Origin: Promethearchaeia archaeon
GTDB taxonomy: Archaea; Asgardarchaeota; Lokiarchaeia; Sigyniarchaeales; SOKP01
Reading direction: 5' to 3'
Length of the DNA: 11,638 nt
Assembly: GCA_029856105.1 (NCBI GenBank)
Contig: JAHQWH010000003.1
Location: 1-11,638 of the forward strand
Part shown: positions 3,777-6,143 of the stretch, in pieces
Position numbering within the stretch: the first letter of the stretch is position 1
Layout of the letters: each line of letters opens with the position of its first letter
The notes under the pieces: generated by a model
Told to the model about the DNA's origin: nothing
The model's input: only the letters and a program-made list of their open reading frames with translations
Database searches by the model: none
Position numbers and translations under genes: made by a program

Positions 3777-6143
3777 TTAATTTGTTGGATTATTGATTTG
3801 TAATCTGGATTCGCGAACAATTTGGCGTTTTTTGGCAAAAATTAAGCAAATTACGCTAAATCCAATGAATACCAAGAAAGAAATCCCAAATGGAATTTCT
3901 CCTCCAGACGTTTCATCGTCATCAATAGTTGAATTAATAGTTACCGTAACTGAGTTCGAGATAAAATTTCCAATTTCGTCTGTAAAAGTTATGTTATACA
4001 TATAAACACCAGGTTCAAAGCCGTCCGGGATATTATATACGACCGGCGTATTACTAGCCCAAGGCGTCGACGATACTACTATACCAGTTCCATTCAGTTC
4101 GATCGTATAAGTGTCTGGATTTGCATCAGTTACCGTCCAAGAAAGGCTCTGCCCCGTATATCCCGCTTCTACAGTGAAATCGCTCGGAGCGACTAATACT
4201 ATCGGGTTTTCCCTATCAACCCTCTTTCTTACTTGAATGACCGCTAAGCCCGAACTATGATCCGCCACGTAGGCGTAATCTCCGCTCACGTAAACATCAA
4301 GGGCATCTCCGGTCGTGGCTTCGTAGATGGGCGTTCCCGGGTTTGTAGGGTCGGAAATGTCGATGACCGCTAAGCCCGAACTATGATCCGCTACGTAGGC
4401 GTAATCTCCACTCACGTAAACATCAAGGGCATCTCCGGTCGTGGCTTCGTATACGGGCGTTCCCGGGTTTGTAGGGTCGGAAATGTCAATGACCGCCAAA
4501 CCCGAACTACGATCTGCCACATAGGCGTAATCTCCGCTCACGTAAACGCCACGTGCCTCATGGGTCGTGTCTTCGTAGATGGGCGTTCCCGGGTTTGTCG
4601 GGTCGGAAATGTCGATGACCGCCAAGCCGGAAAAATAATCTGCCACGTAGGCGTAGTTTCCGCTCACGTAAACGCCCCATGCAAATCCGGTTGTGTCTTC
4701 GTAAACGGGCGTTCCCGGGTTTGTCGGGTCGGAAATGTCGATGACCGCCAAGCCCGAACCACAATCTGCCACGTAGGCGTAATCTCCGCTCACGTAAACA
4801 TCAAGGGCATCTCCGGTCGTGTCTTCGTAAACGGGCGTTCCGGGATTTGTCGGGTCGGAAATGTCGATAACCGCCAAGCCCGAGCCAAAATCTGCCAAGT
4901 AGGCGTAATCTCCGCTCACGTAAACACCAGTTGCAAGTCCGGTCGTGTCTTCGTAGACGGGCGTTCCCGGGTTTGTCGGGTCGGAAATGTCGATGACCGC
5001 CAAGCCGGAAGTACCATCCGCTACGTAGGCATAATTCCCGCTCACGTAAACGCCACGTGCAGATCCGGTGGTGTCTTCATAGACGGGCGTTTCAGGGTCT
5101 ATAGGCACGGAAATATCGATGACAGCCAAGCCTGAATGCTCATCCGCCACATACGCATAATCTCCACTCACGTAAACATCACGTGCATCTCCGGTCGTGT
5201 CTTCGTAGATGGGCGTTCCCGGGTTTGTTGGGTCGGAAATGTCGATGATCGCCAAACCCGAAATACTATCTGCCATGTAGGCGTAATCTCCGCTCACGTA
5301 AACGGCATATGCTTCTCCGGTCGAGTCTTCGTAAACGGGCGTTCCCGGGTTTGTCGGGTCGGAAATATCGATGACCGCCAATCCGGAATAACTATCCGGC
5401 ACATAAGCGTAATCTCCGCTCACGTAAACGCCAATTGCATATTCTGTTGTATCTTCGTAGACGGGAGTTCCTGGGTTTGTTGGGTCGGAAATATCGATGA
5501 CTGCCAAACCCGAATCAAGAATTGCCAAATAGGCGTAATCTCCACTCACGTAAACACACCAAGAATTTCCGGTCGTGTCTTCGTAGACGGGCGTTCCGGG
5601 GTTTGTCGGGTCGGAAATATCGATAACCGCCAAGCCAGAAGTATAATCCGCCACGTAGGCGTAATCTCCGCTCACGTAAACGTCACATGCAGTTCCGGTT
5701 GTGTCTTCGTAGACGGGCGTTCCCGGGTTTGTCGGGTCGGAAATGTTGATGACCGCCAAGCCAGAAGTATAATCCGCCACGTAGGCGTAATCTCCGCTCA
5801 CATAAACACCAGTTGCAAGTCCGGTCGTGTCTTCGTAGACGGGCGTTCCGGGGTTTGCCGGGTCGGAAATGTCGATGACCGCCAAGCCCGAACCATGATC
5901 CGCCACATAGGCGTAATCTCCGCTCACATAAACGCCATATGCAGCCCCGGTCGTGTCTTCGTAATAAACAGAAGATTGTTGGGGAGGGCGTGTATTAATA
6001 ATCTCGATAGGACTCTTCTCGTTGATGGGAATTTCGCTATCTCTCTGTATACTTATTAACATATTAGGAATTACGATAAACATTGAAACAAGTAGAATAC
6101 TCAGAAAGATATTTATTTTTTTTGATTTTTTTGATTTCTGCAT
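3777..6143 (-). CDS. Cell-surface LVIVD-repeat beta-propeller protein with N-terminal signal/anchor, probable Ig-like stalk and C-terminal membrane anchor
   Basis: 788 aa: basic then hydrophobic N-terminus (MQKSKKSKKINIFLSILLVSMFIVIP); 14 x 42-aa repeats VYVSGDYAYVADxxSGLAVIDISDPTNP; about 100-aa beta-rich domain (LSWTVTDANPDTYTI...GVYMYNITFTDEIGN); acidic linker; IPFG + TM + KKR. Confidence 0.92.
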   Translation of the reverse strand: MQKSKKSKKINIFLSILLVSMFIVIPNMLISIQRDSEIPINEKSPIEIINTRPPQQSSVYYEDTTGAAYGVYVSGDYAYVADHGSGLAVIDISDPANPGTPVYEDTTGLATGVYVSGDYAYVADYTSGLAVINISDPTNPGTPVYEDTTGTACDVYVSGDYAYVADYTSGLAVIDISDPTNPGTPVYEDTTGNSWCVYVSGDYAYLAILDSGLAVIDISDPTNPGTPVYEDTTEYAIGVYVSGDYAYVPDSYSGLAVIDISDPTNPGTPVYEDSTGEAYAVYVSGDYAYMADSISGLAIIDISDPTNPGTPIYEDTTGDARDVYVSGDYAYVADEHSGLAVIDISVPIDPETPVYEDTTGSARGVYVSGNYAYVADGTSGLAVIDISDPTNPGTPVYEDTTGLATGVYVSGDYAYLADFGSGLAVIDISDPTNPGTPVYEDTTGDALDVYVSGDYAYVADCGSGLAVIDISDPTNPGTPVYEDTTGFAWGVYVSGNYAYVADYFSGLAVIDISDPTNPGTPIYEDTTHEARGVYVSGDYAYVADRSSGLAVIDISDPTNPGTPVYEATTGDALDVYVSGDYAYVADHSSGLAVIDISDPTNPGTPIYEATTGDALDVYVSGDYAYVADHSSGLAVIQVRKRVDRENPIVLVAPSDFTVEAGYTGQSLSWTVTDANPDTYTIELNGTGIVVSSTPWASNTPVVYNIPDGFEPGVYMYNITFTDEIGNFISNSVTVTINSTIDDDETSGGEIPFGISFLVFIGFSVICLIFAKKRQIVRESRLQINNPTN
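3825..3896 (-). other. C-terminal tripartite sorting/anchor signal (IPFG - hydrophobic helix - KKR)
   Basis: IPFGISFLVFIGFSVICLIFAKKR has the motif/TM/basic layout of archaeal CTERM signals (PGF-CTERM, Loki-CTERM-like). Confidence 0.6.
4236..5966 (-). repeat. Coding tandem array: 13 full 126-bp units plus one 93-bp terminal unit, no indels
   Basis: Units start (minus strand) at 5966 and every 126 bp down to 4328. Consensus VYEDTTGxAxGVYVSGDYAYVADxxSGLAVIDISDPTNPGTP; scaffold near-identical at DNA level. Confidence 0.97.

Follow-up and report, generated by a model that had tools for sequence, protein, structure and literature searches.

Four hypervariable, mostly NNT codons per blade in a Lokiarchaeial LVIVD-propeller protein: a probable diversified binding surface on a shared scaffold

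How four codons in each repeat of a protein can differ from repeat to repeat and still end mostly in T, when the codons around them stay close to a single sequence, is the question raised by one gene of a Promethearchaeia archaeon (GenBank assembly GCA_029856105.1, here G000; 3.66 Mb, 32% GC, 238 contigs, rated 92% complete with 6% contamination). The window analyzed, 11,638 nucleotides (nt) long, is an entire 11.6-kb contig (C3) of this genome, and the gene encodes P0001, a protein with 14 tandem LVIVD repeats of 42 amino acids, each a predicted propeller blade. The original prediction regarded it as a candidate antibody-like surface receptor, whose variable codons arose either by strong diversifying selection on the first two bases of ancestral NNT codons (N being any base) in a young array or by targeted mutagenesis acting from elsewhere in the genome, as in diversity-generating retroelements (DGRs). 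We consider it probable, at roughly three in four, that P0001 is a membrane-anchored double-LVIVD-propeller protein in which the blades share one scaffold and four hypervariable (HV) codons per blade have been diversified on one face, which would constitute a binding surface.

A unit is taken here to begin at the P of PVYEDTTG; in this register the HV positions, previously counted as 8, 10, 24, and 25, are 9, 11, 25, and 26, and the high coordinate of the HV codon at position p of unit k is 6143 - 3*(58 + 42*(k-1) + p - 1). Every codon of the HV lists drawn up in the original prediction was reproduced, as were the counts made from them: NNT accounts for 50 of the 56 HV codons (for 30 of 35 when each distinct codon is counted once per site). 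Of the six remaining codons (gaa, gag, gag, tgg, tgg, and ggc), all but ggc encode Glu or Trp. Each HV column of P0001 holds 7-9 different residues, and position 12 constitutes a fifth, weaker variable site (G/D/C/A). The blades are about 82% identical in protein; from blade to blade, amino acid identity is 0.909 in the scaffold versus 0.077 at the four HV sites, with a scaffold nucleotide identity of 0.86. The same division is seen in the consensus of 38 homologues, where the HV columns remain “x” and the scaffold is conserved.

The excess of NNT codons is not a by-product of the encoded residues. From the HV residues and host codon usage, 24.8 NNT codons would be expected rather than the 50 observed, and none of 200,000 simulations gave more than 40; among HV residues with at least three codons, NNT is used in 28 of 29 cases against 9.3 expected. 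The host favors tta for Leu (0.48; ctt, 0.18) and aga for Arg (0.48; cgt, 0.10), whereas the HV sites use ctt and cgt, which are a single step away from other NNT codons. As had also been noted, the scaffold is C/G ending, with a G+C fraction at third codon positions (GC3) of 0.62 versus 27% G or C third bases in the long open reading frames (ORFs) of the genome. A second array in G000, paralogue B on contig C7, displays the same codon pattern, with 47 of 56 HV codons being NNT.

The distribution of changes within the HV codons bears directly on their origin. Between blades, these codons differ at bases 1, 2, and 3 with pairwise frequencies of 0.73, 0.71, and 0.22, respectively, and the scaffold third base differs with a frequency of 0.255; in paralogue B, the third-base values are 0.31 for HV codons versus 0.29 for the scaffold. 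Thus, the HV third base diverges like scaffold third bases and is not specially protected. By Nei-Gojobori counting, the ratio of nonsynonymous divergence at HV sites to synonymous divergence in the scaffold, dN(HV)/dS(scaffold), is 3.5 in the P0001 array and 2.3 in paralogue B; the scaffold itself has an omega (dN/dS) of 0.12, with a dS between blades of 0.44. With bases 1 and 2 saturated and the third base changing at an ordinary rate, dN greatly exceeds dS at codons that were ancestrally NNT, and no special mutator is needed for the NNT bias. These two ratios uphold the first of the two origins originally offered, namely, that ancestral NNT codons in a homogenized propeller scaffold were strongly diversified at bases 1 and 2. 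The accompanying description of the array as young fits only in part, given the scaffold dS of 0.44 between blades.

Scanning public metagenomes with a 32-nt scaffold pattern recovered another 63 arrays of this unit lineage, with about 680 units in total and AT-rich flanks in every case, and 690 units of this lineage from metagenomes form the basis of the family-wide HV statistics. The HV pattern is present in more than 60 independent arrays, 14 being the modal unit number (31 of 63) and 7 the second most frequent. In the 690 units, the HV third base is T in 0.75, G in 0.13, A in 0.06, and C in 0.06 of cases, as against T in 0.85, G in 0.06, C in 0.05, and A in 0.04 for the 4-fold degenerate scaffold codon gtt. 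Third bases have thus changed in 25% of HV codons across the family (6 of 56 in P0001), mostly from T to G, and the resulting NNG codons are mostly amino acid changing (tgg, 7-10%; gag). The sites differ in their residue preferences, with Y/R/W at position 11, G/Y/W at position 25, and T/D/S/G at position 26, and AAT is not enriched (5.7% of HV codons). In arrays L006 and L011 from another genus, position 26 is frequently NNC with bases 1 and 2 varying, which indicates that the identity of the retained third base is lineage specific.

An AlphaFold2 model of P0001, built with 38 homologues, has a predicted local distance difference test (pLDDT) score of 89.8 and a predicted template modeling (pTM) score of 0.85. 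It places four strands in each unit (positions 2-4, 10-16, 19-24, and 28-33) and a beta-sandwich after unit 14. The best Foldseek matches of this model (top E value, 4e-18) are ectodomains that combine two seven-bladed propellers with a sandwich and include Bacteroides hybrid two-component sensors (BT4663) and PorZ; a sequence search of the PDB recovered no solved LVIVD relative of P0001. By strand topology, the HV sites fall in the loop between strands 1 and 2 together with the start of strand 2 and in the loop between strands 3 and 4. As an antiparallel meander sets these two loops at the same end of the blade, positions 5-12 and 25-27 are predicted to lie on a shared face, with the invariant GD turn and the ISDPTNPGT loop at the opposite end. 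Hence, the earlier placement of the variable sites on one propeller face agrees with the strand topology of a confident model.

The remainder of the protein suggests where such a face would be displayed. The Pfam LVIVD model (PF08309) matches 14 stretches (E value, 2.3e-163; 529.8 bits against a cutoff of 20.2), the NCBIfam choice-of-anchor B domain model matches with an E value of 6e-37, and Tandem Repeats Finder reports a single array at 4237-5963 with a period of 126 and 13.7 copies, unit 14 retaining just its first 31 codons. From the N to the C terminus, P0001 comprises a basic and hydrophobic N terminus, the 14 LVIVD units, an immunoglobulin (Ig)-like domain, and a tail in which an IPFG motif is followed by a hydrophobic helix and KKR. 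The N-terminal segment, 65-88% identical in amino acids to those of paralogues and relatives, is a probable signal peptide or anchor. In the model of the Ig-like segment, the block pLDDT is mostly 76-85 with a single dip to 52, and at the equivalent position homologues carry PF19077, frequently in several tandem copies. The tail is a probable membrane anchor or sorting signal: its IPFGN-hydrophobic-KR motif is kept in the consensus of the 38 homologues, and the NCBIfam C-terminal sorting-signal models gave no match to it at an E value of ≤1. An NTPase domain of the NACHT or NB-ARC type is absent N-terminal to the repeats, the Pfam search having returned LVIVD and weak spurious matches only. 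By this architecture P0001 is predicted to be extracellular, and we infer that its diversified binding surface is that of an adhesin or receptor. P0001 has no signaling domain and would therefore be read by default as an adhesin or a passive binder. Seven-blade homologues (metagenome proteins P0061 and P0098; 73-75% identity) combine Ig-like domains and one transmembrane helix with a cytoplasmic TIR_2 domain, so the same head would act as a receptor ectodomain elsewhere. The named records that hold the closest homologues are labeled Promethearchaeota. The coordinates of these features are listed in Table 1.

Table 1. Positions in the window of the P0001 gene, its predicted domains, and the segment that carries it
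Feature	Position	Strand	Basis
LVIVD-repeat surface protein P0001, whole coding sequence (788 aa + stop)	3777..6143	-	ORF list, translation, Pfam LVIVD
N-terminal 58 aa: basic stretch, hydrophobic helix, and short linker	5970..6143	-	Translation; AT-rich, GC3 0.31
LVIVD units 1-7, first predicted seven-bladed propeller	5088..5969	-	Unit table, AlphaFold2 model, fold matches
LVIVD units 8-14, second predicted seven-bladed propeller	4236..5087	-	Unit table, AlphaFold2 model
Example HV codon, unit 1 position 9, gct	5943..5945	-	Codon table; HV positions 9, 11, 25, and 26 (12 weaker) in all 14 units
Predicted Ig-like beta-sandwich between propellers and membrane anchor	3909..4205	-	All-beta model, residues 604-693; GC3 0.37
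C-terminal tail: IPFG motif, hydrophobic helix, KKR, short tail of ~17 aa	3780..3908	-	Translation
2.6-kb segment with whole LVIVD gene and intergenic DNA, recent insertion	3683..6308	.	Missing at same site in G108

Taking these observations together, we propose that the gene is a member of a large family in Lokiarchaeia, whose membrane-anchored proteins carry two seven-bladed LVIVD propellers on an Ig-like stalk and in which unit exchange would hold all blades on one scaffold sequence near a common consensus. Positive selection would meanwhile have driven four codons per blade, and more weakly a fifth, to saturation through amino acid-changing point substitutions. The outcome would be up to 56-70 variable residues rich in Tyr, Gly, Ser, Trp, Arg, and Asp on a fixed frame that might bind ligands; with this residue composition the comparison to antibodies stands, but not with regard to mechanism. 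The NNT bias would then be historical: the ancestral codons were presumably NNT, and changes at their bases 1 and 2 would be nearly all nonsynonymous and favored. The third base would drift at the ordinary rate, most of its changes also altering the amino acid (tgt to tgg and gat to gag). Such ancestry, along with ordinary third-base drift, would explain why Arg is cgt and Leu is ctt at these sites instead of the host's aga and tta.

Several features of the arrays are consistent with unit exchange. Among 18 fourteen-unit arrays, units in the same position are just 0.01-0.02 more alike than units in other positions, and unit identity within an array (0.87) is about equal to that between arrays; the units thus behave as a single exchanging pool, with almost no positional orthology between these 18 arrays on which an orthologue-based dN/dS could be founded. 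In a PHI-type test, nearby informative sites were more compatible than distant ones in the P0001 array (P = 0.001; in paralogue B, P = 0.39), and units 10, 13, and 14 share the cassette gat gcc ctt gat together with a linked synonymous marker. Shuffling of cassettes was considered as the main source of diversity over deep time and rejected: across arrays, there is hardly any linkage disequilibrium among the HV codons, which suggests that deep diversity arose through point changes independent of one another and not by shuffling a few cassettes.

Some points weigh against the reading proposed here. Homogenization or synonymous constraint may lower the scaffold dS and thereby inflate dN(HV)/dS(scaffold); moreover, the blades compared are paralogous, recombining units, and the ratios come from Nei-Gojobori counts, not from a tree-based site model. 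Both the identity of the predicted HV face (top or bottom) and the clustering of its sites in three dimensions are read from strand topology alone, and the GC-rich scaffold common to more than one genus is not accounted for by the model alone. The tempo of change is also at odds with a continuously diversifying surface. In pairs of near-identical metagenome contigs, after removal of nonorthologous units at alignment ends, the sparse remaining data contain one difference in 192 HV base-1 and base-2 sites in orthologous units, with the HV sites changing no faster than the flanks. Contig L194 and paralogue B show no differences over 14 units, with their upstream flanks differing by 0.4%. The polymorphism among strains or reads that was to be looked for at the HV codons thus did not appear as an excess of change between near-identical strains, which makes the diversification episodic or old rather than continuous and gives no sign of ongoing hypermutation; from the sequences compared, HV change looks episodic. 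No allele more than 78% identical to P0001 was found among 5.8 billion clustered proteins, nor was a syntenic orthologue of its gene found among the retrieved loci.

The GC-rich blade DNA deserves separate consideration. The elevation is limited to the repeats and, less strongly, the Ig domain of the P0001 gene, and across 28 family arrays internal identity correlates with scaffold GC3 (Spearman coefficient, 0.63; P = 4e-4). The consensus unit of P0001 is 0.81-0.92 identical to those of arrays from another genus, third positions included, with the same choice of C or G at 4-fold degenerate sites. Unit-to-unit third-base identity between the P0001 array and these arrays is 0.66, whereas the copper-transporting P-type ATPase (Cu-ATPase) genes from the same genomes reach a third-position identity of only 0.45-0.46. 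GC-biased conversion acting on synonymous sites, another constraint, or lateral movement of arrays among Lokiarchaeia might account for the conserved blade DNA. A GC-rich donor from outside was examined in 78 named-genome loci and rejected: arrays with a consensus at least 0.85 identical all lie in AT-rich Promethearchaeota contigs, one short contig among them (L040) being labeled “uncultured bacterium.” Bacterial arrays have a consensus identity to the P0001 array of at most 0.68, and the scaffold pattern was not found on viral contigs.

Further observations concern the distribution of such DNA. The GC-rich consensus blade (GC3, about 0.6) occurs in L006, L011, L041, L046, and L070 and in about 60 metagenome loci (L127-L206), all with AT-rich flanks, and the two genera with near-identical blade consensus have housekeeping genes saturated at synonymous sites. 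Loci labeled Wukong-, Hod-, and Hermodarchaeota (L054, L056, and L079) carry internally homogeneous LVIVD arrays with a different consensus unit, GC3 being well above flank GC in L056 and L079 and only slightly so in L054 (0.40 versus 0.37). Equally homogeneous arrays on the AT-rich bacterial contigs L058, L059, L062, and L064 have no GC3 excess.

The alternative that survives best, although we regard it as unlikely, is relaxed constraint, in which the loop codons would be free to vary (omega of about 1) and conversion, possibly GC biased, would erase differences elsewhere and depress the scaffold dS. Both the unusual synonymous conservation of the scaffold relative to the Cu-ATPase genes, seen in units and consensus alike, and the lack of acceleration between near-identical strains are in keeping with it. 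However, the residues at the HV sites do not resemble those expected of AT-biased drift: Trp, with its single codon, makes up 7-10% of residues at three of them, the most frequent residues are Gly, Tyr, Ser, Arg, and Asp, Lys is at 0.4%, and the preferences are site specific. Further, amino acid-changing T-to-G changes at the third base exceed synonymous T-to-C changes by about 2:1, unlike in the neutral gtt codon, and a conversion tract passing over an HV codon would homogenize that codon too unless selection resists.

A more exotic possibility is that the blades are held on a master sequence while their four loop codons are re-randomized by an undescribed process that needs no reverse transcriptase, such as a templated or GC-biased conversion peculiar to these Asgard arrays. 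Such a conversion would jointly explain why positional orthology is absent, why neighboring HV codons are nearly independent, why different genera have the same GC-rich consensus, and why the third base is retained; nevertheless, we hold it to be very unlikely.

Variation concentrated on NNY codons (Y being a pyrimidine) without stop codons is the classic signature of DGRs, and the HV codons match it. In a DGR-like scheme, a reverse transcriptase would copy an AAT-bearing template unit with adenine-specific errors and overwrite the blades, thereby generating NNT codons. The units do act as copies of one master consensus without positional orthology, and the HV codons are nearly independent of one another, both of which a master-template model predicts; some Asgard metagenome-assembled genomes are reported to contain DGRs (PMC7495880). 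Yet we consider this origin extremely improbable, and the targeted mutagenesis offered in the original prediction is not supported. The reverse transcriptase domain RVT_1 is absent from G000 at its 92% completeness. Among 121 family genomes, 74 have an LVIVD homologue and 27 have RVT_1, which occurs at similar frequencies with (18/74) and without (9/47) the homologue, leaving 56 of the 74 with no RVT_1; arrays without RVT_1 are present even in the single-contig genome G091 and in G081 and G063, which are rated 100% complete. The suggested BLASTN search of G000 with one unit for a template with AAT at these sites near a reverse transcriptase (blastn, word size of 7) matched only the three coding arrays, with no template or isolated copy. 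In the wider family, 0 of 690 units have AAY at all four sites, AAT is as rare among HV codons as reported above, and 25% of third bases are changed, of which adenine mutagenesis of AAT is incapable. Homing from a single template would also wipe out the scaffold differences between blades (dS, 0.44), and arrays are identical between near-identical strains.

That the array is an assembly artifact, a chimera pieced together from reads of different strains or paralogues with a cassette mosaic that is not one gene, is hardly credible. In its favor, G000 is metagenome assembled (238 contigs, 6% contamination), the contig of paralogue B ends within a repeat, and some near-identical metagenome contigs split abruptly at overlap ends inside arrays. 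However, exact repeats within the P0001 array do not exceed 54 nt, with no 55-mer occurring twice, so the sequence does not force a chimera, and the reading frame stays open from end to end. In addition, 14 units are modal in independent assemblies (31/63 arrays), the HV pattern recurs in more than 60 independent arrays, and the separate metagenome contig L194 reproduces array B base for base over all 14 units, showing that such arrays assemble reproducibly.

The combination of a shared scaffold with a few diversified codons per unit has parallels in other systems. In the HNWD family of Podospora anserina (het-d, het-e, and het-r), WD40 units are exchanged within and between members, and four residues per repeat are under selection (PMC1805685); our comparison draws on Paoletti, Saupe, and Clave 2007 (PMC1805685), Chevanne et al. 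2010 (PMC2873952), and Dyrka et al. 2014 (PMC4986451). Like P0001, these are beta-propeller repeats that belong to a multigene family, are highly conserved internally at the DNA level, and exchange units both inside one gene and with paralogues. Four residues per repeat diversify under selection on the interaction face of the HNWD proteins, and probably likewise on the face predicted from topology in P0001. They differ in being cytoplasmic eukaryotic proteins of the NOD-like receptor (NLR) type (NACHT and WD40), with repeat-induced point mutation (RIP) as a possible source of mutation, whereas P0001 is predicted to be an extracellular membrane-anchored archaeal LVIVD double propeller without an NTPase domain. 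The P0001 family, unlike HNWD, also has a fixed count of 14 or 7 blades in most copies and a scaffold far more GC rich than the genome. A similar mode is seen in the zinc-finger minisatellite arrays of PRDM9 (background in PMC8925151), which undergo concerted evolution with strong positive selection on a few contact-residue codons per unit. The likeness is one of mode only, a tandem array being homogenized while a few codons per unit diversify; PRDM9 is an animal DNA-binding zinc-finger protein diversified by meiotic recombination, with an unrelated fold, location, and organism. Of the systems compared, the HNWD WD40 arrays of fungi come closest, and PRDM9 arrays evolve similarly.

Other repeat proteins share individual features with P0001. 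Its blades, at about 82% identity, exceed the 60% cutoff for internal symmetry applied to propeller repeats in PMC9218822, whose text contains neither LVIVD nor Asgard (0 occurrences each), draws its archaeal cases mainly from Euryarchaeota, and does not treat NNT or GC3 codon patterns. HR WD40s (2017; PMC5587647) have a conserved scaffold with diverse “hot-spot” positions, as does P0001. DGR targets (Paul et al. 2017, cited in PMC7495880) resemble it in having NNY-concentrated variation without stops in a surface-exposed ligand-binding protein, as P0001 is predicted to be. P0001 differs from them in lacking a reverse transcriptase, a template repeat, and an adenine-only pattern, in its changing third bases, and in having 14 tandem targets in a propeller fold in place of one C-terminal variable region in a C-type lectin or Ig fold. 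Adindla et al. 2004 (PMC2447325) described LVIVD repeat proteins themselves from archaeal and bacterial cell surfaces, with a 42-amino-acid repeat and four predicted strands per unit in 2-14 copies; repeat length, strands, and copy range are the same as in P0001, for which a cell surface location is predicted, whereas HV codons go unmentioned in the title and abstract. The mode of evolution is thus already known, and what is new is the fold, the location, and the lineage; as the mode is known from fungal NLRs, the finding extends a known principle and does not constitute a new one.

The setting nevertheless lends it interest. No known organisms are more closely related to eukaryotes than the Asgard archaea, whose cultured members live in tight partnerships, yet how Asgard archaea recognize partners, viruses, or kin at the surface is largely unknown. 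The family is large and turns over fast (73 of 120 sampled family genomes have the gene, several in many copies), and with its diversified binding face, joined in some members to a cytoplasmic TIR domain, it offers a concrete candidate recognition repertoire. The GC-rich blade DNA shared across genera could, in addition, help in the study of biased gene conversion or of lateral exchange among these archaea.

Gene turnover is seen at the locus itself. Window positions 4-3682 and 6309-9547 align at 92% and 91.5%, respectively, to adjacent DNA of G108, a genome of the same genus, in which the NifU and Cu-ATPase genes lie about 35 nt apart (L126; G108:C134 10194-10225) where G000 has 3683-6308. 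Its absence from the same site in G108 marks this segment as a recent insertion, with no obvious target site duplication at 3683-6308. In G091, from another genus, the same two neighbors are about 1.1 kb apart with no match to the LVIVD gene between them.

The relatives of the gene vary in blade and domain number. Paralogue B (C7 2-2602, minus strand) has 14 blades and at least three tandem Ig-like domains, two of which are 98.9% identical in DNA, and runs off the contig; in paralogue C (C19 ~92228-93355, minus strand), which is seven-bladed, blade 5 is shorter by a one-residue deletion, and the first four blades are almost uniform at the HV sites. A close relative at L028 (G100:C16) 1200-2600, 78-79% identical in its N- and C-terminal parts, has just 5 blades, either by real contraction or by collapsed assembly; its frame stops 11 residues sooner than that of P0001, at two consecutive TAA codons after a shared RESR.

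The neighboring genes in the window are ordinary, encoding a MobA-like protein, a metallo-beta-lactamase (MBL)-fold protein, NifU, a Cu-ATPase (HMA, YHS/TRASH), and a major facilitator superfamily (MFS) protein. The copper-type P-type ATPase, at 6520-9546, has an HMA domain at its N terminus and, at its C terminus, two metal-binding domains of the YHS/TRASH type. Within the gene for the 794-amino-acid MBL-fold protein, positions 1750-1820 hold a 9-nt periodic A/G-rich tract (AAAAAGAAG, about 8 copies) that encodes a Lys/Glu-rich low-complexity stretch.

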